From positions 1 through 11,717 of the forward strand of contig NZ_JAPNKD010000018.1 in the NCBI RefSeq assembly GCF_026626585.1: DNA of 11,717 nucleotides. The letters run 5' to 3'. The notes under the pieces are model-generated. The model saw only the letters and a list, made by a program, of their open reading frames with translations, was not told the DNA's origin and made no database searches. The position numbers were made by a program, and so were the translations under genes. Shown here piece after piece: positions 1-11,561 of this stretch. The DNA is from Nannocystis sp. ILAH1 (GTDB lineage: Bacteria > Myxococcota_A > Polyangia > Nannocystales > Nannocystaceae). How positions within the stretch are numbered: position 1 is the first letter of the stretch; the number at the start of each line of letters is the position of its first letter.

Positions 1-448
1 GCACGCTCAGCTGCACGCTGCCGGTCTGGAGGTCGTTGAGGTCGGTGATGCCCGAGGCCTCGTGGACCATCATGCAGCGCGGGCTCTTCTGCAGGCCGGG
101 GACGAGCGCGACCACCGGGGCGCCCTGGGCCCGCGCGAGCAGGATCTCGCTGGCGTCGGCGATGCCGAACTGGACGCGACCCGCGGCCACCTGCGGCAGG
201 ACCGGGGCGTCGGGCCGCCCGGGCACGAGCTCGACGTCGAGGCCCTCTTCCTTGTAGTAGCCGTGGACGAGGGCGGCGAAGTAGCCGCCGTGCTCGACCT
301 CGGGGAACCAGTTGAGGGCGATCCGCACCTGCTGCGAGTCCTGCTGGCGGCCGCAGGTGACGAGCAGCAAGCCGAGGCAGGCGACGAGCAGGCGGACGAG
401 GGCGCCGAACCGCGGGCGCGGCGGGACCGGTCGGAGCGGAGCGCGCAT
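1..448 (-). CDS. ABC transporter substrate-binding lipoprotein, NMT1/THI5 (SsuA/TauA/ThiY-like) family. Only the N-terminal ~149 aa are present; the gene continues past the left edge.
   Basis: My translation of the minus strand from the ATG at 448-446 gives MRAPLRPVPPRPRFGALVRLLVACLGLLLVTCGRQQDSQQVRIALNWFPEVEHGGYFAALVHGYYKEEGLDVELVPGRPDAPVLPQVAAGRVQFGIADASEILLARAQGAPVVALVPGLQKSP... There is no stop before position 1. The N-terminus has a basic n-region, a hydrophobic h-region and lipobox-like LVAC/LVTC. The segment LNWFPEVEHGGYFAALVHGYYKEEGLDVEL matches the N-terminal signature of the NMT1/THI5 periplasmic-binding family (LNWxP...GYFKExGLD). Third codon positions are GC-rich. The ORF is missing from the supplied track, probably because it has no in-window stop. 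Confidence 0.6.
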   Translation of the reverse strand, partial: MRAPLRPVPPRPRFGALVRLLVACLGLLLVTCGRQQDSQQVRIALNWFPEVEHGGYFAALVHGYYKEEGLDVELVPGRPDAPVLPQVAAGRVQFGIADASEILLARAQGAPVVALVPGLQKSPRCMMVHEASGITDLNDLQTGSVQLSV

Positions 449-513
449 GCCGGAAGCGTACACCCGAGCGCCACGGACGCACCAGCGGCCTCGACCGTGC
501 CACGGGGCGCATC

Positions 514-577
514 CATGGGGGCATGGTCTCGAGGACATGAATAAAAGAGCATGTCCTCGGGGACATGTGAAGTGTGG
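514..577. repeat. CATG-phased 14-bp tandem array, copy A. CATG at 514, 522, 536, 550, 564; four units are exactly 14 bp.
   Basis: Read directly. Units are CATGGTCTCGAGGA / CATGAATAAAAGAG / CATGTCCTCGGGGA / CATGTGAAGTGTGG. The 10-bp spacers are variants of the palindrome TCCTCGAGGA. The array lies between the reductase stop (719) and the substrate-binding gene start (448). Confidence 0.7.
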
Positions 578-718
578 CGTCCGGCGGGCAGTGCGAGGCA
601 GAAGCTCGCGGGCTCGCGCGGCGGAGCTCCGCGAAGACGGTCTCTCGCGGCGTGGTGCGCTTCCCCGCAGGTGAGTGCGACCCGACCGGAGCGCGGCACG
701 TGGGCTCCGCCCGCCGGT

Positions 719-1768
719 TCAGGCGACGGGGATCGGCGGCGGGACGATGCTGTCGGGCTGGCCGCCGGCGATCCGCGGGCGGCTGCTCTCGACCTGCTGG
801 TGCGGGGTGCCGAGGGCGATCGCGCTGGCGGCGTCGAGGCGGGCGAGCTGGGCCGGCGCGAGCTCGAGGGTGAGCGCGGCGAGGGCGGCGTCGAGATGTG
901 GGCGGGTGCGCGGGCCGAGGATGGGGATCCGCGCGGTCGTGGAGCGATCGGCGTGGGCCAGCGACCAGGCGAGGGCGACCTGGGTCGGGGCGACGCCGGC
1001 CTCGGCGGCGACTGCGACCACGGCGTCGAGGATGCTGGTCTCGCGCGCGGTCTTCTCGGTGTGGACGAGCATGCCGAGGCCGGTGAGGCGGCCCTCGTCG
1101 CTGGTGCGGTACTTGCCGGTGAGGAAGCCGCCGCCGAGCGGCGACCACAGGGCCGCGCCGAGCCCCAGCGCCTCGGCCATCGGCAGCAGCTCGCGCTCCC
1201 CGGTGCGCTCGACCAGGCTGTGCTCGATCTGCACGCCCGCGAGCGGGGTCCACCCGCGCAGCTCGGCGATCGCGTCGCCTCGCGCGACCCGCCAGGCGGG
1301 GAAGTTCGAAAGGCCGCCGTAGAGGATCTTGCCGGCCCGCGCGAGGTCGTCGAGGCCGCGCACGATCTCATCGATCGGGGTCAGGCCGTCGGGGAAGTGG
1401 ACCCAATACAGCTCGATGCGGTCGGTCTTGAGCCGGCGCAGGCTGGCCTCGAGCGCGGCGATCATGGTCTTGCGGCTGTTGCCGGTGGCGTGCAGGCCGC
1501 CCCCGACGCCGAGGGTGTACTTGCTGGCGACGACGAAGCGGTCGCGCTCGGCCGCGAGGAACTCGCCGAGCAGTTGCTCCGACTGGCCGACCTGGTAGGT
1601 GTCGGCGGTGTCGATGAAGTTGCCGCCCGCCTCGGCGTAGGCGTCGAAGATCCGCCGCGCCTCGGCGGGCTCGCTGCCGTGGCCCCAACCAGTGCCGAAG
1701 TTGCCGGTGCCGAGGGCGAGCTCGGAGACGCGTAAGCCTGTGCGACGACCGAATGTCCTGTACCGCAT
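719..1768 (-). CDS. Aldo/keto reductase (AKR superfamily, NADPH-dependent oxidoreductase)
   Basis: 349-aa ORF. The N-terminus MRYRTFGRRTGLRVSELALGTGNFG is the classic AKR start. Catalytic tetrad candidates are D/Y in FIDTADTYQ, K in VVASKY and H in WVHFPD. Third codon positions are GC-rich. AGGAG sits about 6 nt upstream of the ATG, read as reverse complement at 1774-1778. The overlapping ORFs 70..1371(-), 551..1735(+) and 675..1322(+) are low-complexity alternate frames. Confidence 0.85.
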   Translation of the reverse strand: MRYRTFGRRTGLRVSELALGTGNFGTGWGHGSEPAEARRIFDAYAEAGGNFIDTADTYQVGQSEQLLGEFLAAERDRFVVASKYTLGVGGGLHATGNSRKTMIAALEASLRRLKTDRIELYWVHFPDGLTPIDEIVRGLDDLARAGKILYGGLSNFPAWRVARGDAIAELRGWTPLAGVQIEHSLVERTGERELLPMAEALGLGAALWSPLGGGFLTGKYRTSDEGRLTGLGMLVHTEKTARETSILDAVVAVAAEAGVAPTQVALAWSLAHADRSTTARIPILGPRTRPHLDAALAALTLELAPAQLARLDAASAIALGTPHQQVESSRPRIAGGQPDSIVPPPIPVA

Positions 1769-1775
1769 CGTGTGC

Positions 1776-1830
1776 TCCTGAGGTGATTTTTAGATTATGG
1801 ACGTCATATGGAATCGGCAAGGGGATGGCG
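1776..1830. promoter_or_regulatory. AT-rich divergent promoter region between the reductase (-) and the MFS gene (+). It contains a direct repeat TATGGA(1796-1801)/TATGGA(1807-1812) and the GACGTC/CATATG palindromes.
   Basis: A local drop in GC (tgatttttagattatggacgtcatatggaatcgg) in a ~70% GC background, lying between divergently oriented genes. No -10/-35 consensus is asserted. Confidence 0.35.
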
Positions 1831-1895
1831 CGTGAGTTCGGTTGAATCGGGTCGGGCGGATCCGCGCGGCGAGGGCTTGCGATCCGGAAATTATT

Positions 1896-1912
1896 CGTTC
1901 AATGATTGAACG
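1896..1912. promoter_or_regulatory. Perfect 17-bp palindrome CGTTCAAT-G-ATTGAACG. Candidate operator for the HxlR-type regulator, or another dimeric wHTH repressor, abutting the MFS start codon.
   Basis: Read directly: 8-bp inverted arms with a 1-bp centre. It is AT-rich and lies immediately 5' of the ATG at 1914. HxlR/MarR-type regulators bind palindromes of this size near the genes they control. Confidence 0.5.
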
Positions 1913-1913
1913 C

Positions 1914-3278
1914 ATGGAGATGCGTCTGTCCCCGTTGGTCGTGGCCAGCCTGGCCGTGTTCGCGGTGTTCCTCGACACGACGGTGCTGTTCGTGGCGTTC
2001 CCGTCGATCGCGGCGACGTTCCCGGCGGTGCCGACGGCCGAGCTGTCGTGGGTGCTGAACGCGTACACGATCGTGTTCGCGGCCGCGCTGGTGCCGTTCG
2101 GGCGGCTCGCCGATCGCTGGGGGCATCGGGCGATGTTCCTGGCCGGGTCGATCGGATTCACCCTGGCGTCGCTGCTGTGCGCGGCGGCGCCGACTCCGGG
2201 GCTGCTGGTGGCCGCGCGCGTGCTGCAGGCGGCCGGCGGCGCGGCGCTGGTGCCTTCGTCGCTGGCGCTGGTGATGCGGGCGACGCCGCGCGAGAAGCTG
2301 CCGGTGGCGCTGGCGGTGTGGGGCGCGACGGGGGCGGTGGCCGGGGCGGTCGGGCCGACGCTCGGCGCGGCGCTGATCGAGGCGTGCGGCTGGCGCTGGG
2401 TGTTCGCCATCAACCTGCCGGTCGGGCTGGTGACTGTGCTGCTCGGGCGCCGGCGACTGGCCGAGTCACGCGACCCGGACAGCGTGCTGCCGGCGCCGCT
2501 CGGGGTGGTGCTGCTGGTGCTCGCGGCGGTGTTGATCACTCTGGCGCTGGTGCTCGGCGAGGCGTGGGGCTGGACGTCGCAACGGACCGCGGCGACTCTG
2601 GTGGCCGGCCTGGCGACCCTGGCGGTGTTCGTGCTCCATCAGGCGCGCACGCGGGCGCCGACGATCGATCTGTCGCTGTTCGCGGCGAGCAACTTCCGCT
2701 GGGCCAACGCGGCGACGCTGACGTTCGGCGCGGCGTTCACTGCGATGTTCCTGGCCAGCGTCCTGTTCCTCACCGCGGTGTGGGACTGGTCGATCCTCGC
2801 GGCGGGCTTCGGCGTGGCGCCCGGGCCGCTGCTGGTGGCGGTGCTGTCACCGCGGTTCGGGCGGCTGGCGGCGCGGATCGGCCAGCGACCGCTGCTTATC
2901 GTCGGCGGGCTGTCGTTCGCGCTCGGAGGGCTGTGGCGCCTGCTGATGCTGTCGGCCGAGGTCGACTACGCGATCGACTATCTGCCGTCGATGCTGCTGA
3001 CGGGGACGGGGGTGGCGCTGTGCCTGCCGCAGCTGTCGAGCGTGGTCGGCCAGGCGCTGCCGGCCAATCGCCTCGGGGTCGGCGGGGCGGTCCACCAGGC
3101 GCTGCGCCAATTCGCGGGGACGCTCGGGGTGGCGCTGGCGATCGGGCTGACTGCCGGGGCGAGCGGGCCGGCCGACGCGCTGGCGCGGTTCGACCGGGTG
3201 TGGTGGGTGATGATCGCCGGCGGCTTGGCGACCGCGCTGTGCTCGCTGCCCCTTCGGACAGGTCCGGCCCGGGCGTGA
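1914..3278 (+). CDS. MFS transporter, DHA2 (EmrB/QacA-like 14-TMS drug:H+ antiporter) family
   Basis: TM1 is LSPLVVASLAVFAVFLDTTVLFVAFPSIAATF. Motif A is GRLADRWGHR. Antiporter motif C is GAVGPTLGAALIE. There are many hydrophobic spans. The track ORF begins at 1842, but codons 1881-1913 have A/T-rich third positions and overlap the palindrome, so I prefer the ATG at 1914 (MEMRLSP...). The start is uncertain; 1842, 1902 and 1920 are all possible. Confidence 0.8.
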   Translation: MEMRLSPLVVASLAVFAVFLDTTVLFVAFPSIAATFPAVPTAELSWVLNAYTIVFAAALVPFGRLADRWGHRAMFLAGSIGFTLASLLCAAAPTPGLLVAARVLQAAGGAALVPSSLALVMRATPREKLPVALAVWGATGAVAGAVGPTLGAALIEACGWRWVFAINLPVGLVTVLLGRRRLAESRDPDSVLPAPLGVVLLVLAAVLITLALVLGEAWGWTSQRTAATLVAGLATLAVFVLHQARTRAPTIDLSLFAASNFRWANAATLTFGAAFTAMFLASVLFLTAVWDWSILAAGFGVAPGPLLVAVLSPRFGRLAARIGQRPLLIVGGLSFALGGLWRLLMLSAEVDYAIDYLPSMLLTGTGVALCLPQLSSVVGQALPANRLGVGGAVHQALRQFAGTLGVALAIGLTAGASGPADALARFDRVWWVMIAGGLATALCSLPLRTGPARA

Positions 3279-3291
3279 TACAACGAGCCTC

Positions 3292-3741
3292 GTGCGGCGC
3301 AAGCGACTCGACCGGATGCAGTGCTCGATCGCGCGGGCGCTCGACGTCGTCGGCGACCCGTGGACGCTGCTGCTCGTGCGCGACGCGCTGCTCGGGGTGA
3401 CGCGCTTCGAGGCGTTTCAGGCGCGGCTGCAGATCCCGCGGGCCACGTTGACGGCCCGCCTGGAGCACCTGGTCGCCGCGGGAATCCTCGAGCGCCGGTC
3501 CTATCAGGATCATCCGCCGCGCGAGGAGTACGTGCCGACGGCGAAGGGCCGGGGGCTGCGGCCGGTGATCGTGACTCTGATGCAGTGGGGCGACGAGTTC
3601 GCCCGCGAAGACCCACCGCCGACGGTGCTCGAGGACGCCGCCACGGGGCTGCCGATCGAGCCGGTGCTGGTCGACCGCGTCAGCGGGGCGCCGCTCACCG
3701 CGCTGCGGGTGCGCGCGGTCGGACCGGTGGTGCCGCGGTGA
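3292..3741 (+). CDS. HxlR-family (MarR-like winged-helix) transcriptional regulator. Probably a thiol-based electrophile/redox sensor.
   Basis: MQCSIARALDVVGDPWTLLLVRDALLGVTRFEAFQARLQIPRATLTARLEHLVAAGILERR matches the HxlR signature C-x-I/V-A-R-x-L-D-x-x-G-D-x-W-T, with an N-proximal Cys as in YodB/HypR/QorR-type regulators. The start may be the ATG at 3292 or at 3319. There is a ~45-aa C-terminal extension. Confidence 0.8.
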   Translation: MRRKRLDRMQCSIARALDVVGDPWTLLLVRDALLGVTRFEAFQARLQIPRATLTARLEHLVAAGILERRSYQDHPPREEYVPTAKGRGLRPVIVTLMQWGDEFAREDPPPTVLEDAATGLPIEPVLVDRVSGAPLTALRVRAVGPVVPR

Positions 3742-3752
3742 GGTTGAGGGAG

Positions 3753-3822
3753 CATGCTCGTTCGAGCATGTCCTCGAGTGCATGAAGGATGGGGCATGTC
3801 GGAGGAGACATGCGCGAAAGGT
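3753..3822. repeat. CATG-phased 14-bp tandem array, copy B. Five units: CATG at 3753, 3767, 3781, 3795, 3809, each exactly 14 bp apart.
   Basis: Units are CATGCTCGTTCGAG / CATGTCCTCGAGTG / CATGAAGGATGGGG / CATGTCGGAGGAGA / CATGCGCGAAAGGT. The array lies between convergent genes (HxlR stop at 3741, permease stop at 3822-3824). The last unit ends at the permease stop codon. Confidence 0.75.
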
Positions 3823-4610
3823 CAGGAGACTGCGAGCTCGCGGCCGCGCCAGCGGCGGAGGGCGAGCTCGCCGAGCAGGGCGACGAGGCCGAACAGCAGC
3901 AGGCCGAGCAGGGTGGCGGTGAAGATCGCGGCGAACAGGTAGGCGGTCTGCAGGCGGCCGGAGGTCTGGAGGATGAGGGCGCCGAGGCCGAGCTCGTCGG
4001 CGCCGAAGCCGGCGAAGAACTCGCCGACGATGGCGCCGATGACCGCGAGGCCGCCGCTGATCTTGGCGCCGGCGACGAAGTAGGGCAGCGAGCCGGGCAG
4101 GCGCAGCTTGAGCAGCAGCTGCAGGCGCGAGGCGTCGCTCATGGCGAACAGCTCGAGCAGCTGCGGGTCGACGCGGACGAGGCCGGTGGTGCCGTTGGTG
4201 ATGATCGGGAAGACGCTGAGGATCGCGGCGGTGAGGACGACGCTCTGCAGGCCGGTGCCGAACCACACGACGATCAGCGGGGCGACGGCGACGATCGGGA
4301 CGGTCTGCAGGAAGATCGCGTACGGGTAGAGGCTGCGCGCCGCCGTCTGCGACTGCGAGAACAGGACTGCTACCAGGCCGCCGACGACGAGGCTGGCCCC
4401 GAGGCCGCCGAGCGCGCCGAGGGCGGTCAGCAGCGCGGCCTGGGCGAGCTCGCCGACGTGGGCTGCGGCCTCGCGTGCGACCTCGGCCGGGGTCGGCACG
4501 AGGTAGGCCGGCAGCGCCAGGGCGCTGCAGGCGAGCTGCCACAGGCCGAGGAGGGCGAGGAAGACGAGGAGCGGCGGGAGCGCGGCTCGAGCGGCCGATG
4601 CGAGGGACAT
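3822..4610 (-). CDS. ABC transporter permease, nitrate/sulfonate/bicarbonate (SsuC/TauC-like) family
   Basis: 262-aa polytopic hydrophobic protein (…LLTALGALGGLGASLVVGGLVAVLF…IFLQTVPIVAVAPLIVVWFG…) with a BPD-transporter-like loop around GLVRVDPQLLELFAMSDASRLQLLLKLRLPGSLPYFVAGAKIS. It sits adjacent to an ABC ATPase on the same strand. Confidence 0.8.
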   Translation of the reverse strand: MSLASAARAALPPLLVFLALLGLWQLACSALALPAYLVPTPAEVAREAAAHVGELAQAALLTALGALGGLGASLVVGGLVAVLFSQSQTAARSLYPYAIFLQTVPIVAVAPLIVVWFGTGLQSVVLTAAILSVFPIITNGTTGLVRVDPQLLELFAMSDASRLQLLLKLRLPGSLPYFVAGAKISGGLAVIGAIVGEFFAGFGADELGLGALILQTSGRLQTAYLFAAIFTATLLGLLLFGLVALLGELALRRWRGRELAVS

Positions 4611-4779
4611 GCGAGGAGGCAGAGAGGAGAGGAGGAGGCGAGGTGCCGGCGCCAGGCGAGGGAGCGGGGAGATGTGGGGAGGAGGAAGGCCGGCTGCGGC
4701 GGCGGGGCGGGGATCGGCCGGGAGAGCTGTCCCGAGGGACTTGTGTGGAGGGACAGGTGCGAAGGGACAGGCGGAGAGG
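4611..4779 (-). other. 169-nt intra-operon spacer. It is ~80% purine on the + strand, so the transcribed minus-strand RNA is a polypyrimidine tract. It contains short direct repeats and there is no Shine-Dalgarno before the permease ATG.
   Basis: On the + strand: gaggaggcagagaggagaggaggaggcgagg … gagggacaggtgcgaagggacaggcggagagg, with AGGGACAGG(T/C)G repeated. The inverted repeat GTCCC-GA-GGGAC lies at 4729-4740. The GGAGG motifs are on the non-coding strand relative to the flanking genes. Confidence 0.5.
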
Positions 4780-5622
4780 TCAGGTCCGAACAGGCAGGTC
4801 CGAAGGGTCAGGCGGGGCGGCGGCGCGCAAGTGGGCGCGGACGTCGGCGGCGATCGCCGCGAACTCGGGGCTGCCGATCAGGGCGGCGCGGCGCGGGCGC
4901 GGCAGGGCGATCGGGATGTCGGCGACCACGCGGCCGGGGCGGCCGGAGAGGACGATGACGCGGTCGCCGAGCAGGACCGCTTCGGCGACGCTGTGGGTGA
5001 CGGCCAGGGCGGTGAAGCGGTCGCGCTCCCACAGGCGCAGCAGCTCGTCGTTGAGCCGCTCGCGCGTGAGCTCGTCGAGGGCGCCGAACGGCTCGTCGAG
5101 CAGGAGCAGCTCGGGCCGGGTGACGAGGGCGCGGGCCAGGGAGGCCCGCATCTTCATGCCGCCCGAGAGCGCAGTCGGCGGGGCGGCGGCGAACTCCGAC
5201 AGGCCGACGAGCGCGAGCGCGGCGTCGGCGGCGGTGGTCTGCTCGGCTTTCGGGGCGCGCGCGAGCTCGAGCGGGAGGCGGACGTTGGCGTGCAGGCTGC
5301 GCCACGGGAGCAGGGTCGGATCCTGAAACACGAAGGCGACCGCGCGGCGCGCCCGGGCCCGCTCGGGGGCCTCGCCCGCGACTGTGATGGTGCCCGCGCT
5401 GGCGGGCGCGAGGCCGGCTGCCACGCGCAGGAAGGTCGACTTGCCGCAGCCCGAGGGGCCGATGAGGGCGAGCAGCTCGCCGCGGCGGACGACGAGGTCG
5501 AGGCCGCTCAGGGCCTGCACGCCGCCCGCGAACTGCACGCCGAGGCCGCGGGCCTCGATGTGCGGGGCTGGGGCCGGCTCGGTCACGCGGCGGACGCTAA
5601 CACAGCAGCGGACGCGACGCAC
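4780..5622 (-). CDS. ABC transporter ATP-binding protein (SsuB/TauB-like)
   Basis: Walker A is GPSGCGKST. The ABC signature is LSGGMKMRASLARAL. Walker B is LLLLDEPFGALD. The H-loop is AVTHSV. The start may be the ATG at 5622 or, more likely, the GTG at ~5585 (VTEPAPAPHIEARGLGV…). Confidence 0.8.
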   Translation of the reverse strand: MRRVRCCVSVRRVTEPAPAPHIEARGLGVQFAGGVQALSGLDLVVRRGELLALIGPSGCGKSTFLRVAAGLAPASAGTITVAGEAPERARARRAVAFVFQDPTLLPWRSLHANVRLPLELARAPKAEQTTAADAALALVGLSEFAAAPPTALSGGMKMRASLARALVTRPELLLLDEPFGALDELTRERLNDELLRLWERDRFTALAVTHSVAEAVLLGDRVIVLSGRPGRVVADIPIALPRPRRAALIGSPEFAAIAADVRAHLRAAAPPDPSDLPVRT

Positions 5623-5706: not shown

Positions 5707-6492
5707 TCAGGCCTTGCGGGGGCGCGAGCGGCGGGCGCGGGCGGGCTTGGCCGGGGGCGCTGGGGGCTCGGGCTCGGGCTCGTCTGCCTCTTCGGGCATG
5801 TCCTCGAGGTCCGGTGCTTCCGCACCTGTCGTTTCGGACATGTCCTCGGAGCCCTCCTCGGCCTCGGGCTCGGGCCCGGCCTCGGGCGGGTCGGACGGGG
5901 CCGCCTCGAGGCCGCTGTTGCGGAGGGTGCGGGGCGGCAGCAGCTCGGGCTCGCTGACGACCTTCTTGGCCAGGAAGATGGCGGCGTCGATCTGGGAGAA
6001 GCTGCGGGCGCGGTAGAACTGGAGCGCGCGCTTGTTGTTGGCGGCGACCTCGAGGACGAGGTGCGTGCAGCCGCGCACGCGGGCGAGGTGCTCGAGCTGC
6101 TCGATGACGAAGCTGCCGATCCCGCGGCCCTGGAAGTCGGGGTGGATGGCGATCTCCTCGACGAACAGCGGGCGCATGTCGCGGCTCTCGAAGTAGCGCT
6201 CGTTGATCCAATTGTCGGAGCCGATGACCTCGTAGGCGCACTCGGCGTAGCCGACGATCACCGGGGCGTCGCCCTCGTGGATCTCGAACAGCAGCTGCTC
6301 GATGCCCTCCTCCTCGTAGATCTCGAGGAAGCGGGTCTTGGTGCGGGGGCGCTGGTACTCGACGGTCTCGCGGTTGACCGAGCGGAACACGCGCTTGAGG
6401 AACTCCCACACCTTGTTGAGGTCGCGGCGGTGGATCCGGCGGACACGGATGGTCGGCTCCGTGACGGCGGGCGCGGGCTTGCGGGAGGCCAC
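5707..6492 (-). CDS. GNAT-family N-acetyltransferase (~175-aa core) with an ~85-aa acidic/Pro-rich low-complexity C-terminal tail that ends in a basic KPARARRSRPRKA
   Basis: The acetyl-CoA binding motif is QGRGIGSFVIEQLEHLA, followed by the GNAT core LVLEVAANNKRALQFYRARSF. The start is GTG (rc of cac at 6490-6492). The tail is ...EAGPEPEAEEGSEDMSETTGAEAPDLEDMPEEADEPEPEPPAPPAKPARARRSRPRKA. The gene is co-oriented with and immediately upstream of the ABC ATPase. Confidence 0.75.
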   Translation of the reverse strand: MASRKPAPAVTEPTIRVRRIHRRDLNKVWEFLKRVFRSVNRETVEYQRPRTKTRFLEIYEEEGIEQLLFEIHEGDAPVIVGYAECAYEVIGSDNWINERYFESRDMRPLFVEEIAIHPDFQGRGIGSFVIEQLEHLARVRGCTHLVLEVAANNKRALQFYRARSFSQIDAAIFLAKKVVSEPELLPPRTLRNSGLEAAPSDPPEAGPEPEAEEGSEDMSETTGAEAPDLEDMPEEADEPEPEPPAPPAKPARARRSRPRKA

Positions 6493-6552: not shown

Positions 6553-6567
6553 TGGCATGCTCGGCCG

Positions 6568-8388
6568 ATGCGTCCCCGCGCCGCTGCGTCCGCTGCCGAG
6601 CCCGCGCGCCGGCGTGGCCGACGTCCCGGCGCGGGCCTGCGCCAGATCGGGCTCGGGTGCGTGGCCGTCGCGCTCGCTTGCGGACCGGACGAGCAGAAGT
6701 CGCAGAAGGTCGAGGCGAACCCGAACATGCCCGACCGGGTGCAGGCGCCTGCGCCCGCGCCGCGCCGGCCGGAGGTCAGCGACTGCCCCGAGGCTCTCCG
6801 CGAGCCGGAGCAGGTCGACCGCGTGATCGGCTCGGCCTGCAAGTCGGTGACGGTCCACCCGGGCTACCGGATCGAGAACGGGTCGCTGACGATCGAGGCA
6901 GGGGTGACCCTGCAATTCATGCCCGACGCCGAGCTGGCGGTCGGCTTCGAGCGCCCGGCGACGCTGCACGTGCGCGGCACGCCCGAGTCGCCGGTCCGCT
7001 TCACGGCCGCGGGCGATCAGGCCAAGCCGGGGGCGTGGAAGGGGATCGCGCTGTACGACCACGCCGACGGCTCGGAGATCGCCGGGCTCGTGCTCGAGTT
7101 CGCCGGTACGGACCTGCGCGGGGCGATCTACGTGCAGGCGACCGACGTGAAGATCGACGGCTCGACGGTGCGCGACAGCCAGAACGTGGCGGTCCACGTC
7201 ACGTCGAAGGGCCACGTCAGCAGCTTCAAGGGCAACCGGCTCGAGCGCGTGAGCTCGCCGGCGCTGCTGCTGCCGGCCCGCTCGGCCGGGTCGGTGACGC
7301 CCGACAACACGTTCCCGCCCGACTCGGTGATCCACGTGCTCGGCGGGATGATCCGCGAACGCGCCCGCTGGGACGTGCCGAAGGTGCCGTTCGTGATCGG
7401 CGGGGTGATCGAGATCGAGGGCCCCGACGACAAGCACGAGGCGATGCTCGAGCTGGCCCCGGGGACAGTCCTGAAGTTCGACGACGACGCGTACTTCACG
7501 GTCGGCTACGACCACCCGGCGGCGCTCATCGCCGAGGCGGCGGGCAAGGAGCCGATCGTGCTGACGTCGGCGACGCGCGAGACGTCGCACGCGTGGCGCG
7601 GGGTCAACCTCTACCGCTCGGCCACCGCGAGCTTCAGCAACGTGGTGTTCGAGTACGGCGGCCAGCGTTCCGACCGCGGGGTGGTCTACGCCAACAACGA
7701 GGCGCGCCTCAGCGCGAAGGGCTGCACGTTCCGCGACAACGGCGGCGGGGTGACGCTCCAGGGCGCGAACGTCCGCCTCGGCGAGTTCCGCGACAACACG
7801 TTCGAGCGCTCGCACCCGGCCTTCGACGTGAGTCCGCAGCTGTTCGGGATGATCCCGGCCGAGAACAAGCTCGACGCGGCGACGACGGTCCAGGTCGAGG
7901 GCGGCGAGGTCAGCAAGGACGCGGTGTGGCACGACTTCGGGGTGCCGATCGAGGTCAAGCGCCCGGTCTCGGTCGACAACCAGGCGACGCTGACGATCCG
8001 CGCCGGCGCCAAGCTGCGCGTCCACGACGGCTTCTCGCTCGGGGTCGGCGAGTTCGGCGGCGGCTCGCTGCGCGTCGAGGGCACGGCCGAGCGCCCGGTG
8101 CAGATCTTCGGGACCACCGACCGCCGCGGGACGTGGGACGCGATCCGCCTGTACGAGAAGGCCCGCGGCAACCTGTTCGAGCACGTGCAGCTGCGCAACG
8201 CCGGCGGCGAGGGGGCGATCAACGTCGCCATGGGCGTCGACGCTGTGGTCCGCGACGTGTCCTGCGTGCGCTGCTTCAGCCCGACGCTGACGTGGGCCTG
8301 CGGCTCGCGCGTGACGTCCGAGCGCGTCACGGGCGGAGCCGAGACGCCGGCGGCGACGCTGCCGCCGTTCGGCTGCGATCCGTCGTGA
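6568..8388 (+). CDS. Secreted putative lipoprotein of 606 aa, built from three tandem ~180-aa right-handed beta-helix-like modules, with a Cys-rich C-terminus
   Basis: The ATG at 6568 gives MRPRAAASAAEPARRRGRRPGAGLRQIGLGCVAVALACGPDEQKS, a basic n-region, an h-region and lipobox-like ALAC. There are three internally repeated A modules: LTIEAGVTLQFMPDAELAVGFERPATLHVRGTPESPVRFTAAGDQAKPGAWKGIALYDHADGSEIAGLVLEFAG / LELAPGTVLKFDDDAYFTVGYDHPAALIAEAAGKEPIVLTSATRETSHAWRGVNLYRSATASFSNVVFEYGG / LTIRAGAKLRVHDGFSLGVGEFGGGSLRVEGTAERPVQIFGTTDRRGTWDAIRLYEKARGNLFEHVQLRNAGG. Each is followed by a B module with Asn/Asp ladder-like tracts (GCTFRDNGGGVTLQGANVRLGEFRDNTFERS). The last 45 aa contain 5 Cys. The 5' 2 kb of track ORF 4609..8388 is an antisense artifact. 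The real gene is the 3' third, in the same frame. Confidence 0.7.
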   Translation: MRPRAAASAAEPARRRGRRPGAGLRQIGLGCVAVALACGPDEQKSQKVEANPNMPDRVQAPAPAPRRPEVSDCPEALREPEQVDRVIGSACKSVTVHPGYRIENGSLTIEAGVTLQFMPDAELAVGFERPATLHVRGTPESPVRFTAAGDQAKPGAWKGIALYDHADGSEIAGLVLEFAGTDLRGAIYVQATDVKIDGSTVRDSQNVAVHVTSKGHVSSFKGNRLERVSSPALLLPARSAGSVTPDNTFPPDSVIHVLGGMIRERARWDVPKVPFVIGGVIEIEGPDDKHEAMLELAPGTVLKFDDDAYFTVGYDHPAALIAEAAGKEPIVLTSATRETSHAWRGVNLYRSATASFSNVVFEYGGQRSDRGVVYANNEARLSAKGCTFRDNGGGVTLQGANVRLGEFRDNTFERSHPAFDVSPQLFGMIPAENKLDAATTVQVEGGEVSKDAVWHDFGVPIEVKRPVSVDNQATLTIRAGAKLRVHDGFSLGVGEFGGGSLRVEGTAERPVQIFGTTDRRGTWDAIRLYEKARGNLFEHVQLRNAGGEGAINVAMGVDAVVRDVSCVRCFSPTLTWACGSRVTSERVTGGAETPAATLPPFGCDPS

Positions 8389-8480
8389 GGCGAGCTGTCG
8401 ACGGGCGGCGCTCGGGCGGCGCGGGTGAGAGCTCGCGAGACAAGAGGTAATTTTTGAGCCGTAAAGGCTGGTTTGGGCGG

Positions 8481-8506
8481 ACAAAGGTACATATATGCAC
8501 CTTTGT
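8481..8506. other. 26-bp near-perfect AT-rich palindrome ACAAAGGT-a-CATATATG-c-ACCTTTGT, followed by TTTCC, inside a ~70-bp low-GC island (8440-8510). Possible bidirectional terminator hairpin or protein-binding site.
   Basis: Read directly. 24 of 26 positions are self-complementary. The island lies between convergent genes (lipoprotein stop at 8388, kinase stop at 8643). A UUUUU run at 8451-8455 precedes a small hairpin AGCC-GUAAA-GGCU at 8458-8470. Confidence 0.35.
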
Positions 8507-8573
8507 TTCCGGCCGCGAGCGTCGGTGCATGAGCAGGCGAGAGCGCGAGTGGGATGGATGATGAGCGCGCTGG

Positions 8574-8647
8574 CATGACGCATGGAGCATGTCGACGAGG
8601 ACATGCTCCGAAGAGCATGCTCCTATGGACATGTTCTTCGAGTCATG
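8574..8647. repeat. CATG-phased array, copy D. CATG at 8574, 8581, 8588, 8602, 8616, 8630, 8644, with spacing 7, 7, 14, 14, 14, 14.
   Basis: The sequence is GCATGACGCATGGAGCATGTCGACGAGGACATGCTCCGAAGAGCATGCTCCTATGGACATGTTCTTCGAGTCATGG. It contains GAGCATGTC-GACGAG-GACATGCTC, a 9-bp perfect inverted repeat around a 6-bp centre. The final CATG overlaps the kinase stop codon (TGA = rc of 8643-8645). In-phase ATGs also occur at 8561 and 8554. Confidence 0.75.
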
Positions 8648-11393
8648 GCCTCGAGGGCAGGTGCGTCCGCGGGCCGGCGCGGGTCAGCAGGCGCTCGCTG
8701 GCGGCCAGCGGGCGGGCGAAGCTGGCGCCGGCGCTGCGGTAGAAGGCGAGCGCGGCCCCGAGGTGCGGGCGAGCGGCGGCCACGGCGGGAGGCGTGGCGG
8801 TCAGCAGGGCCTCGGCGAGGGTGCGGTGGGCGCGAGCGAGGCGCGGGGCCCAGTGCGGGTCGTCGGCGGCGAGGACGGTGAGCTCGGCGACCGCGGCGGC
8901 CAGCGGGACGCGGGCCTCGAGCGGTCGGCCGCGGACGAGCAAGTTCTGGCCGAGGACCAGGCGCAGCTCGGCGATCTCCTCGCTCGACCAGGTGGCGTCC
9001 GGCATGCGCGCGAGGGTGGCCTGGAGGTGCTCGACGGCGGTGTTGTCGTCGACCAGACCGGCGAGGCCGCGGTAGCCGGCGAGCAGGGTCGCCTCGGGCC
9101 CGAACAGGCGCGTGCCGGACAGCTCCGACAGCTCGGCGGCGGCGCGGAAGACCGAGGCGGCGTCGTCGTCATAGCCGATCTCGGTGGCGGCGCGGCCGAG
9201 GTGGAAGAGGCACCGCGTGCGGCGCACGAGGTCGTCGGGCAAGAATCGCTCGAGCGCGACGCAGCCGGTCTGGAGGATCGACCAGGCCTCGCCCGGCTCG
9301 GCCAGCTGGGCGGCGGTGATCCGCGCCTCGATCGTGGCGGGGTGGACGACGCCGAGCTCGGCGTCGAAGATCTCGAGGGCGCGCGCGAGGAGGTCGTCGC
9401 GCGCGGCGCCCGGCTCGGTGACGGAGGCGAGGTTGAGCAGGGTGTAGCCGACGTCGCGGTGGCCGGCCGACAGGGCGCCCTGGCGCACGCTCAGGGCCTC
9501 GGTGAAGTAGCGCCGCGCCTCGGCCGAGTTGCGCTGGGCGAGGTTGGCGACGCCGAGGTTGTGCAGGACGAGGCCGCGCAGGGCCTCGGGGGCGGCGCCG
9601 CGAGAGGCGAGGGCGAGGGCGAGGGGCTCGTCGGCGAGGGCGCGAGCGACCATCTCGGGCCGGCGGCTGGCGGCGACGATCCGCGAGGCCACGGCCTCGG
9701 CCGCGATCGCGTCGCCGCGCGACTCGATGCCGCTGCGCATGGCCCGGGTCAACCACTCGAGCTCCTGGCCGGTCTCCTCGGAGGTGTTGAGCGAGAGCCG
9801 CCCGCGCAGCAGCGCGACCTCGGCCCGCAGCGGGGCGTAGCCGATCTGCTCGGCGGCGGCCTCGATGTCGACGGCCTGATCGACCGCGTCGTGGATCCGC
9901 CCGAGCTTGGCCAGCGCCTCGGCCCGCGCCATGTGATTGCGCAGGTCGGCGACCCGCTCGCCGAGCTCGGGGTCGTCGGGCGCGGGCGGCTCGGCCTTGA
10001 GGAAGGCGAGCTCGTGACAGGCGGAGGGCGGCACGAGATCGCTGGCGGCGCCGAGCGCCCGCGGGGCCATGTCCATGTCGGCGATCGAGAGGGCCTTGAC
10101 GGTCTCGTCGAAGGCGTCGCGCCGGCGATCGAGGCAGCGGCGCTGGCGATCGAGCAAGGCCTCGGTGTAGCGGCCCTGGTGCTCGGCGAGGCAAGTGTCG
10201 CGGTGGTTCTCGGCCCACGAGGCGGCGAAGCGATCGAGCTTGTCGGCGACCCTGGGCCACAGCACCGCGGCGTAGTTGGGCGCCGCGTCGCGCAAGGCGG
10301 TGGCGACGGCGTTGCGCTGGGCCGGGCCCCACACGCGGGCGATGTCGGCGTCGGCGTCGGCACACGGGGACTCGGCGGCGGCCTCGGGCACGAAGGCGAG
10401 GCCGGCGGCGCCGGCGGTGAGGGCGAGCGCCAGCGCGGCGCCGACGACCCGCCAGGTCCGCCCGCGCGACGGGACGAGCGCGCCGAGCAGCGCCTCCATC
10501 GACGGGTAGCGGTCGCGCGGCTCGGTCTTGAGGCCGCGCATGAGGGCAGCGATCAGCCACGCGGGCACGCCGTGGTTGCGCGGCGGAGGCCGCAGGTGGC
10601 CGTTGGTGATCGCGTGCGAGAGCGCGAGGATGTCGTTGCCGGCGAACGGCGGCAGGCCGAACAAAGCCTCGTAGAGGGCGACGCAGAAGCTGAACTGGTC
10701 GGAGGCCGGCTCGGCCGCGCCGCCGCGCCAGCGCTCGGGCGCGAGATAGGCGGGCGTGCCGAGGATGTCCTCGCCGTCGTCGCCGACGCGGATCCGCATG
10801 CTCTGACTGGCGCCCGAGGACAGGTCGAGCAGGCCCGGGCGATCGGGGGTAGCGCGCACGAGCCCGAAGTCGAGGACGCAGGCGCGGCCGGTGGCGTCGA
10901 TCATGACGTTGCCGGGCTTGAAGTCGCGGTGCAGGAGGCCCACCTCGTGGGCGGCGGCGAGGCCTCGCGCGGCCTGAGTGAATACGTCGTGGATCTCGCG
11001 CCAGGTCCGCGGCCCGGCGGCCAGCCAGGCCGGCAGCGCGGCGCCGCGGATCAGCTCCATGGCGACGTAGACCTGGCCCTTGATGACCCCGGCCTCGAGC
11101 ACGGTGATGACATTGGGGTGGCTGACGCCGGCCATCGCCTGAGCCTCGCGCAGCAGCCGGATCTGGCCCTTCGACCCGGTGTCGGGCAGGACCTTGATCG
11201 CGACCTTGCGGTCGAGGAGCTCGTCGTAGGCGGCGTAGACGACCGCCGTGCCGCCGCCGAGGCGCTCGAGGATGGTGAACCGACCGAGCCGCGGAGGCAG
11301 GGTCGCAGGGACCGAGATCGCGACACCAGGCAGCGACTGCGTGATGTCCACCGAGATCCCCGACGCGTCCGTATCGGGAATGATGACGCTCAT
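8643..11393 (-). CDS. Membrane-anchored Ser/Thr protein kinase: an N-terminal Hanks kinase domain, a single TM helix, and a ~570-aa C-terminal TPR-like/helical-repeat sensor region
   Basis: The kinase domain has the beta3 Lys in VAIKVL, catalytic HRDFKPGNVMI, DFG (VLDFGLV), GTPAYLAPE, and a glycine loop LGGGTAVVY. The TM segment is RVVGAALALALTAGAAGLAFV. After the TM helix there are 4 Cys and TPR-like stretches (LHNLGVANLAQRNSAEARRYFTEALSV). The track start is a TTG at 11435. I prefer the ATG at 11393 (MSVIIPDTD…). The 766-aa ORF 9169..11469(-) is an Arg-rich alternate-frame artifact. Confidence 0.8.
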   Translation of the reverse strand: MSVIIPDTDASGISVDITQSLPGVAISVPATLPPRLGRFTILERLGGGTAVVYAAYDELLDRKVAIKVLPDTGSKGQIRLLREAQAMAGVSHPNVITVLEAGVIKGQVYVAMELIRGAALPAWLAAGPRTWREIHDVFTQAARGLAAAHEVGLLHRDFKPGNVMIDATGRACVLDFGLVRATPDRPGLLDLSSGASQSMRIRVGDDGEDILGTPAYLAPERWRGGAAEPASDQFSFCVALYEALFGLPPFAGNDILALSHAITNGHLRPPPRNHGVPAWLIAALMRGLKTEPRDRYPSMEALLGALVPSRGRTWRVVGAALALALTAGAAGLAFVPEAAAESPCADADADIARVWGPAQRNAVATALRDAAPNYAAVLWPRVADKLDRFAASWAENHRDTCLAEHQGRYTEALLDRQRRCLDRRRDAFDETVKALSIADMDMAPRALGAASDLVPPSACHELAFLKAEPPAPDDPELGERVADLRNHMARAEALAKLGRIHDAVDQAVDIEAAAEQIGYAPLRAEVALLRGRLSLNTSEETGQELEWLTRAMRSGIESRGDAIAAEAVASRIVAASRRPEMVARALADEPLALALASRGAAPEALRGLVLHNLGVANLAQRNSAEARRYFTEALSVRQGALSAGHRDVGYTLLNLASVTEPGAARDDLLARALEIFDAELGVVHPATIEARITAAQLAEPGEAWSILQTGCVALERFLPDDLVRRTRCLFHLGRAATEIGYDDDAASVFRAAAELSELSGTRLFGPEATLLAGYRGLAGLVDDNTAVEHLQATLARMPDATWSSEEIAELRLVLGQNLLVRGRPLEARVPLAAAVAELTVLAADDPHWAPRLARAHRTLAEALLTATPPAVAAARPHLGAALAFYRSAGASFARPLAASERLLTRAGPRTHLPSRP

Positions 11394-11561
11394 GGGACTC
11401 GACCAGTCTTGCACCGACCCGCACACACGCCCCAACCGCGGCGTCGCGAGGCCGATGCGGCGCGTTCAAGCGGCGCCGCCGGCCCGTGGCGCGTGTCCGC
11501 CCGACCGCGACGCGCAGCGGGCGCTAAGCATCGCCTGTCCCAAAGTTCTAAATTGATGTGG

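Follow-up and report, generated by a model that had tools for sequence, protein, structure and literature searches.

Is the gene block that interrupts an ABC importer operon in Nannocystis sp. ILAH1 an insertion, and did the repeat arrays at its borders put it there? In the stretch of 11,717 nt analysed here (contig NZ_JAPNKD010000018.1; hereafter the window) from this soil-dwelling genus of natural-product producers, the genes for an aldo-keto reductase, an MFS efflux pump and an HxlR-family regulator stand between the permease and substrate-binding genes of the importer. At each border of this three-gene detoxification block the tetranucleotide CATG recurs at a 14-bp pitch. An initial annotation of the window had proposed that the block splits the importer genes and that the arrays may mark recombination or insertion junctions. 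Our comparisons support the first proposal and point to insertion into the 3′ end of the permease gene. That the arrays mark junctions is not supported; they are best read as an undescribed, clade-specific family of hairpin repeats concentrated at gene 3′ ends. We hold the two parts jointly, an ancient insertion and a separate family resembling repetitive extragenic palindromic (REP) elements and bacterial interspersed mosaic elements (BIMEs), to be probable, if well short of certain.

The gene map of the window was built from the phase of third-codon-position G+C (GC3), Pfam and NCBIfam. Elsewhere we used database gene calls and a Pfam-checked map, with an open reading frame (ORF)/GC caller for L006, L007, L009 and L010 only. 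The genes of the window are:

2–448, minus strand: NMT1/SsuA-type substrate-binding lipoprotein gene, 5′ part (Pfam NMT1, E=1.3e-22), running off the left end of the window
719–1768, minus strand: aldo-keto reductase gene of the inserted block (Pfam Aldo_ket_red, E=3e-64)
1914–3278, plus strand: DHA2/EmrB-type MFS efflux gene of the inserted block (Pfam MFS_1; NCBIfam TIGR00711, 237 bits vs a cutoff of 230.2)
3292–3741, plus strand: HxlR-family regulator gene of the inserted block (Pfam HxlR, E=5e-20)
3822–4610, minus strand: NitT/TauT-type ABC permease gene (Pfam BPD_transp_1)
4780–5622, minus strand: ABC ATPase gene of the same transporter (Pfam ABC_tran; NtrCD/SsuB/TauB-like by NCBIfam)
5707–6492, minus strand: GNAT gene
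about 6556–8388, plus strand: beta-helix protein gene
8643–11435, minus strand: Ser/Thr kinase gene with tetratricopeptide (TPR) repeats

Pfam, NCBIfam and GC3 phase all bear out the order first proposed: GNAT, ATPase, permease, then HxlR and MFS on the plus strand, the reductase on the minus strand, and the NMT1 lipoprotein. The window has a G+C content of 73%. Its permease is 98% identical to that of Nannocystis pusilla and 92% to those of N. bainbridge and N. radixulma; an exact-sequence look-up of it gave no match on record. The three parts that together characterise a NitT/TauT-type importer (ATPase, BPD_transp_1 permease and NMT1/SsuA-type binding protein) are all present, contiguous in L004, L088, L089 and the outgroups described below, and split by the insert in the window. 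Gene tables of the fetched Nannocystis loci list no further transporter genes downstream of the binding-protein gene, and the binding protein therefore belongs to this transporter, as the cognate partner of the permease and ATPase. This rules out its belonging to a different transporter further left, which would have undone the initial annotation's reading of a split gene set.

We fetched genomic context around permease homologues. The interrupted order, with HxlR, MFS and reductase genes between permease and binding protein, was found in N. pusilla (L001), N. bainbridge (L002), N. radixulma (L007), N. punicea (L253) and L252, the last with a reductase at 81% identity. L004/L005, L088 and L089 keep the flanking beta-helix, GNAT, ATPase and permease genes (permease identity 77–80% by global alignment), and there the binding-protein gene follows 9–10 nt past the permease stop. 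Permease and binding-protein genes also adjoin in the deltaproteobacterial, Latescibacterota and Gemmatimonadetes outgroups (L012, L023, L011). Neighbour-joining trees, of the permease and of ATPase plus permease, grouped the block-bearing genomes into one clade, with L086 as its sister, and put the uninterrupted genomes at the base. All this supports the block as an insertion into the ABC operon, splitting a cognate gene set as first proposed. The insert, from about 494 to 3821 (∼3.3 kb), would have entered the permease gene at its 3′ end, on the branch leading to the core Nannocystis clade. It would have brought a divergent pair of transcription units, one with the MFS efflux pump and HxlR regulator and one with the reductase, into an ATPase–permease–binding-protein operon of NitT/TauT type.

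Reductase orthologues occupy the same locus in six Nannocystis genomes, and the window reductase is 99% identical to that of Nannocystis sp. RBIL2; its closest outside relative, at 73%, stands alone in an unrelated context. The HxlR gene has a weak match to an RrpB-like redox transcription factor. A compositionally foreign origin was considered and rejected: GC, GC3 and tetranucleotide profiles of the block match its flanks (r = 0.92–0.95), and in composition the insert cannot be told from its surroundings. Relative synonymous codon usage of the MFS and HxlR genes is somewhat off, which we put down to membrane composition and short length.

A scar of the insertion lies between the array nearest the binding-protein gene and that gene:

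449–493, minus strand: insertion scar (copy 2), decayed ancestral permease 3′ end, in register with the binding-protein ATG

In uninterrupted genomes, the 45 nt that precede the binding-protein ATG consist of the permease 3′ end, its stop codon and a 9-nt spacer. We compared these with the 45 nt upstream of the same ATG in block-bearing genomes, ungapped, anchored at the ATG and with the register fixed beforehand. Identity was 21–27 of 45 nt in all six block-bearing genomes and the window (L252 and L253 included), against a mean of about 14 (s.d. 3) over all other registers; for the window and L004, 5 of 41,500 registers scored as high. The leader in L086, a negative control, had no scar similarity (0.22–0.31 identity). 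In every block-bearing genome, then, remains of the former permease 3′ end with its stop codon lie just before the binding-protein ATG. The ancestral junction reads GCCGCTGGCGCGGCCGCGAGCGGACGCTGTAG-tctccccgc-ATG and the window scar GCCGCTGGTGCGTCCGTGGCGCTCGGGTGTAC-gcttccggc-ATG, made up of a duplicated core (468–489), the old TAG stop, now TAC, at 458–460, and then the old 9-nt spacer.

The working permease ends in ...GCCGCTGGCGCGGCCGCGAGC, followed by different last codons, and a direct repeat of about 21 bp brackets the insert, its copies at 3836–3856 (copy 1, the permease 3′ end) and 468–489. The insertion event would have duplicated about 21 bp of permease coding sequence, one duplicate staying as the working permease end and the other decaying to become the leader of a binding-protein gene that is now expressed on its own. 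The signal came from the anchored comparison; free local alignment of the leader with the permease end was marginal (p about 0.03–0.19). Another candidate relic of the permease 3′ end, at 602–626 (local score 31, reached by 8 of 500 shuffles), was discarded because this stretch occurs only in the window and N. pusilla, the gaps of N. bainbridge and N. radixulma being much shorter. Among Nannocystis species the leader that includes the scar (window 449–513 and orthologues) is 67–91% conserved over the 45 nt upstream of the ATG, much better than the rest of the gap between reductase and binding-protein genes. Such conservation suggests that it may now serve as a promoter or 5′ untranslated region; a consensus scan of the leader found no sigma-70-like promoter.

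The reverse history, an ancestral interrupted order from which relatives deleted the block, is a formal possibility and nothing more, and we allow it next to no probability. Outgroups of other phyla have the adjacent arrangement, the uninterrupted genomes are basal in the tree, and it is refuted by the scar, whose former stop codon and spacer still keep their register relative to the ATG of the binding-protein gene.

The permease–binding-protein junction was hit more than once. In the sister lineage L086 (permease 85–86% identical) an isochorismatase gene lies on the opposite strand between the two genes, at 1775–2761, a second and different insertion. The gap between GNAT and ATPase genes holds 0, 1, 2 or 4 extra genes depending on the Nannocystis genome (L002 5034–9050; L007 6515–8931; L253 3903–5935; L252 2464–6219), these being kinase paralogues or a SIR2 plus biotin-lipoyl set. 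The permease/GNAT neighbourhood is generally plastic.

What, then, are the arrays? Three lie in the window:

514–567, no strand assigned: array A, four CATG at 14-bp pitch (522, 536, 550, 564) plus an out-of-phase CATG at 514
3753–3812, no strand assigned: array B, five CATG at 14-bp pitch (3753, 3767, 3781, 3795, 3809), between the convergent 3′ ends of the HxlR and permease genes
8574–8647, no strand assigned: array C, six CATG at 14-bp pitch (8574–8644) with another at 8581, in the gap where the beta-helix and kinase genes converge

CATG arrays lie at both block borders, as first described, and keep a strict 14-bp pitch. Array C belongs to the same repeat family as A and B and occupies a gap away from the block. 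In the window 12 pairs of CATG are spaced at exactly 14 bp, 9 at 28 and 7 at 42, while other spacings up to 60 bp have at most 3 pairs each. The three chains of at least three CATG at period 14 compare with 0.001 expected from 2000 dinucleotide-preserving shuffles, and none of the other periods from 8 to 21 gave a CATG chain in the window. Among periodic 4-mers, CATG at a 14-bp spacing dominates. From the HxlR stop to array B is 11 nt, and 9 nt separate the end of this array from the permease stop; array A comes 151 nt after the reductase stop, and the binding-protein gene starts 65 nt downstream of it.

The array unit is a 14-bp inverted repeat, TGTCC-N4-GGACA. Units are joined head to tail (GGACA|TGTCC), and CATG therefore recurs every 14 bp. 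Neighbouring units would pair as hairpins with a 7-bp stem and a 4-nt loop (CATGYYC-N4-GRRCATG) on either strand. On both strands the arrays folded much better than their shuffled counterparts, with z of −3.0 (minus) and −5.8 (plus) for array A, −3.7 and −5.2 for array B, and −4.8 and −3.4 for array C. On the minus strand array A contains the hairpin CATGTCC-CCGA-GGACATG followed by a T-rich tail, CTCTTTTATT, which a terminator scan scored as terminator-like, downstream of the reductase gene. No Rfam family matched at any array.

Isolated hairpins, such as CTGTCC-TCAG-GGACAG, are also dispersed in intergenic DNA. TGTCC-N4-GGACA has 19 occurrences in the 77 kb of core Nannocystis sequence, where 0.2 would be expected; the uninterrupted sister lineage gave 6 in 28 kb, and 11 were counted over 53 kb from more distant metagenome-assembled genomes labelled ‘Nannocystis sp.’; the repeat was absent from 41 kb of other Polyangia and from 1.1 Mb of other phyla. 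An everted control was at or near zero in every group, the 1.1 Mb sample containing 3. Only the Nannocystis clade has the unit. At the focal loci, chains of at least three units occurred only in the core clade and L086; they were also seen at unrelated loci of N. exedens and of a second N. pusilla strain. Extrapolation from the focal locus and 46 kb of unrelated loci would give hundreds of arrays per 12-Mb genome; REP elements number more than 100 per genome.

Paired arms of the unit co-vary. At the variable position y1–x1 there were 56 Watson–Crick pairs vs 36 expected, with mutual information between arms of 0.29 bits vs at most 0.13 in mis-registered arm-to-arm controls; total arm pairing was 183 vs 157.6 ± 7.3 when 3′ arms were reassigned. 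Array B in N. radixulma shows a compensatory TC/GA to TTC/GAA change.

Might the arrays instead be neutral 14-bp minisatellites, arising by replication slippage in any free intergenic DNA? Unit number does vary by species, with 5, 5, 5 and 4 for array B and 6, 6, 4 and 4 for array C. However, array B is orthologous in four genomes with invariant CATG columns, and neither it nor array C has internal indels among orthologues; the differences in number come from point substitutions at the array edges, in a fixed scaffold, rather than from unit-sized indels. Units within one array are heterogeneous apart from CATG and a GRR...YYC tendency, unlike the nearly identical units of ordinary satellites. 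With arm covariation and the strong gap-type bias described next also against it, slippage is a highly improbable source.

Arrays favour certain gap types. The focal loci have them in 11 of their 12 convergent gaps, against 5 of 19 where genes run in tandem and 1 of 12 where they diverge, and unit density is 2.7 per kb in gaps vs 0.25 per kb in genes (11-fold), some of the in-gene copies being conserved. Most arrays start 0–30 nt from a stop codon, array A being an exception. Two unrelated loci in N. exedens and N. pusilla (46 kb) again had arrays of at least three units only at 3′ ends, at low occupancy (1/4 convergent, about 1/17 tandem, 0/5 divergent). The fallback offered by the initial annotation, that arrays simply accumulate in intergenic gaps, is therefore nearer the truth and too broad. 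The arrays flank the block because the insert is bounded on either side by the 3′ end of a gene: the HxlR end faces the permease end, and the reductase end faces the binding-protein gene.

A closer tie between arrays and block would hold if the arrays were functional ends of a mobile cassette or recombination sites, either attC-like or terminal repeats of tandem binding sites, by which the block moved. Each end of the insert does have an array next to it, at 9 nt from the permease stop and about 20–65 nt from the scar, and the array units start with TG and finish with CA. Synteny between Nannocystis and L004 breaks at six points, five of which carry arrays, and the focal neighbourhood, at about one array per 4 kb, is roughly five times richer than the two unrelated loci (about one per 23 kb). 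Against this, empty sites have the 9-nt spacer and no array, and the duplicated target is permease coding sequence rather than array. L252 shares the insertion and scar yet retains border remnants of only 1–2 units, and has no chain of at least three units in 17.9 kb. The isochorismatase insertion of L086 has no array on its permease side. Variable junctions between GNAT and ATPase mostly lack arrays: convergent junctions of GNAT with the extra genes are array-free in L002, L252 and L253, as is the GNAT-side gap in L002, L007, L252 and L253. N. exedens and N. pusilla, conversely, have arrays at loci unrelated to this one. We found no integrase or transposase in the block (Pfam, NCBIfam) or beside it (gene tables), no integrase within 20 kb, and no GTTRRRY core is visible in array A or B. 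The initial annotation's proposal that arrays are recombination or insertion junctions, or target-site features, is not supported, and movement of the block by recombination at them appears distinctly improbable.

Like integron attC cassettes, which the picture in the initial annotation calls to mind, the block is a promoter-independent set of genes bounded by imperfect palindromic repeats; unlike them it has no R/L boxes, no GTTRRRY core and no integrase, its empty site is array-free, and its junction bears a ∼21-bp duplication of coding sequence. It shares with integrative islets in gene 3′ ends a direct repeat of the target 3′ end flanking the insert and an intact target gene; it differs in having no integrase, tRNA target or mobility genes, and carries three housekeeping-type genes of native composition. 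Insertion sequences and transposons have a transposase gene, terminal inverted repeats and a target duplication of 2–14 bp; the block has no transposase, and its flanking repeat is about 21 bp of permease coding sequence.

The nearest likeness for the arrays is to REP elements and BIMEs, which are short, imperfect stem-loop palindromes, dispersed, lineage-specific and mostly extragenic near gene 3′ ends; REP elements occur singly or in regularly spaced clusters, have a 20–40 bp unit and keep their palindromy through complementary changes (PMC2817692, PMC3733652). They bear a GTAG or CGTC tetranucleotide tag at one end (PMC3733652). Nannocystis units likewise form stem-loops, co-vary, and are dispersed, lineage-specific, extragenic, located at 3′ ends and regularly clustered. 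They differ in length, being 14 bp (18 nt with the shared CATG on both sides), and have no GTAG/CGTC tag but are bounded by C[A/C]TG ... CA[T/G]G. Neighbours overlap in CATG to give a phase-locked chain, where REPs have variable linkers. BIMEs alternate in orientation; the Nannocystis spacing of 14 bp is regular and the near-palindromic units have an ill-defined orientation, with an asymmetry at the ±1 positions that, in a small sample, hints at mixed orientation. The gene tables of ∼200 kb of fetched Nannocystis-clade DNA contain no gene for a REP-associated tyrosine transposase (RAYT; IS200/IS605-like Y1 transposase). Since the unit departs from REPs in length and tag, we call it REP/BIME-like in behaviour and not a member of the superfamily. 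Myxobacteria go unmentioned in the texts of PMC2817692 and PMC3733652. We found no description of REP, RAYT or palindromic repeats from Nannocystis or other myxobacteria in the open-access literature. REP-like elements are not a feature for which myxobacteria are known.

Another comparison is with bidirectional intrinsic terminators, whose symmetric hairpins lie between convergent genes and can fold on either strand. The arrays resemble them as both-strand hairpins a few nt from two facing stops, and in array A as a hairpin with a T-rich tail. They differ in that most units lack a U-tract, that several phased hairpins share an invariant tetranucleotide, and that copies occur in genes and, rarely, in other gaps. 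Of the features of an intrinsic terminator, the G+C-rich hairpin soon after a stop is present and the U-tract is not; only the array A hairpin passes the terminator scan. The hairpins would act on transcripts as bidirectional 3′-end, terminator or stabiliser structures.

Several observations weigh against the favoured reading of an ancient insertion with a separate hairpin family. There was no bias of G·U over C·A on the sense strand (3 vs 6), and T after the stems, at 0.21–0.24 vs a background of ∼0.13, is modestly enriched, most arrays having no U-tract; we therefore only infer action at the RNA level. Arm covariation could be mimicked by subfamily ancestry. Gap statistics come from orthologous, non-independent gaps and only 46 kb of independent sequence. 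The fivefold array richness of the focal neighbourhood and the arrays at five of six breakpoints count here too, so the arrays may still have some link to rearranged or young intergenic DNA. On the insertion side, neither an integrase nor a transposase is encoded in the block. Strict 14-nt phase and an invariant CATG exceed what a simple terminator hairpin needs. Finally, a related array inside the operon, which went unnoticed in the initial annotation, keeps the pitch and cannot fold, hinting at a reader of the half-site other than base-pairing:

4749–4812, minus strand: CCTG array (CAGG on the plus strand) in the ATPase–permease gap, in 14-nt phase (period 14 by TRF)

This CCTG array (CCTGTCC) shares its pitch and half-site (CTGTCC) with the CATG arrays and is non-palindromic (folding z = +1.97); within the region 4611–4812 it is preceded by a pyrimidine-rich stretch on the coding strand. 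CCTG arrays occupy the same gap in L001 (9820–9900), L002 (9840–9930), L007, L252 (6995–7065), L088 (280–500) and L004, their positions kept even where CATG chains are lacking, with copy numbers from 2 to 10 or more.

Strict phase, invariant CATG and the non-folding CCTG array together keep a protein-reader model alive. In one form, the arrays would be phased duplex-DNA binding sites for a dimeric protein, with a 5-N4-5 geometry as in FNR-type sites, or for a nucleoid-associated or condensing protein; the 14-bp pitch would put three dimers on every four helical turns. Such a protein would suit the way CATG stays invariant and the phase indel-free across species as other positions drift, and the CCTG array's retention of pitch and half-site; analogous heterogeneous 14-bp CATG arrays near terminase genes on phage contigs are plausibly protein-binding. 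Arm covariation, however, is unexpected if half-sites are recognised independently. The ±1 flanks within a unit are less complementary than expected (19% vs ∼33%), and those of neighbouring units more complementary (42–49%). Arrays also sit at gene 3′ ends, with divergent promoter gaps seldom or never occupied, and no candidate protein was identified. We regard this form as unlikely. A variant in which CATG and CCTG chains alike have a dedicated reader in Nannocystis, a protein or single-strand DNA enzyme recognising an [A/C]TGTCC half-site at a fixed 14-nt pitch, is a speculative and rather unlikely suggestion. If true, it would define a new REPIN-like or nucleoprotein array class of neither GTAG nor CGTC type. 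Arrays read in this way would seed or stabilise new intergenic DNA at rearrangement junctions, which would account for a focal locus rich in both arrays and breakpoints.

The insertion is ordinary genome evolution, unusually well documented by a datable scar, a ∼21-bp duplication and a second insertion at the same junction in the sister lineage. Of more interest is the repeat family, a clade-restricted hairpin unit in phase-locked arrays between convergent genes. If the arrays serve as terminators or 3′-end stabilisers in a 73% G+C genome without U-tracts, recognising them would improve operon and 3′-end annotation in Nannocystis; if they are read by a protein, they represent a new repeat–protein system. 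In either case CATG arrays offer a simple sequence marker at the genus level.

We also looked for similar arrays elsewhere. A viral scan for five CATG at period 14 gave 42 loci, nearly all of them homogeneous satellites. The few heterogeneous phage arrays near terminase genes were judged unrelated to those of Nannocystis. They lie on contigs of 46–47% G+C (L098 6672–6745 and L118 4552–4625, also L127, L129 and L096), have AT-rich palindromic flanks (GAATWCATGWATTC) and precede a divergent large-terminase gene by about 650 bp. They may be protein-binding repeats of a packaging site. A metagenome scan also returned mostly satellites, and among the matches listed only L147 looks related: at 2781–2910 of this 71% G+C contig is an oriented array of 11 GACATGCCCCT-type units at 14-bp pitch. 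L147 may come from a related organism.

Units were also noted inside genes. One, CTGCCCC-TTCG-GACAGG, lies at window 3247–3266, in the last MFS codons just 5′ of the HxlR start, and is kept in L001, L002 and L007. In an ORF for an extracytoplasmic function (ECF) sigma factor, the linker after the sigma domain is encoded with two invariant CATG 14 nt apart and hairpin-unit flanks (L001 17609–17640; L002 17704–17749; orthologues in L007, L252 and L253). We rejected a recent, discrete insertion of this in-gene array, because all five orthologues have kept it. Downstream of the binding-protein gene, a 456-aa ORF has hairpin units (ACCTGTCCCCGCGGACATCC) every 54 nt (L001 16033, 16087 and 16141; L002 16091–16322). 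This ORF had no Pfam match, and is either a repeat protein encoded over hairpin units or a mis-called gene.

Between the beta-helix stop and array C, window 8436–8512 contains an AT-rich palindrome, ACAAAGGTACATATATGCACCTTTGT, then TTTCC, with a small upstream hairpin. N. pusilla and N. bainbridge have kept this segment, which folds with z = −3.1 and −4.1 and has no Rfam match; it could be the terminator of the beta-helix gene or a small RNA. In N. pusilla CP185339 (L001 6129–7962 and 14190–15153), the beta-helix and binding-protein genes each match the window proteins in two frames, these frameshifts reflecting either pseudogenes or long-read assembly errors.

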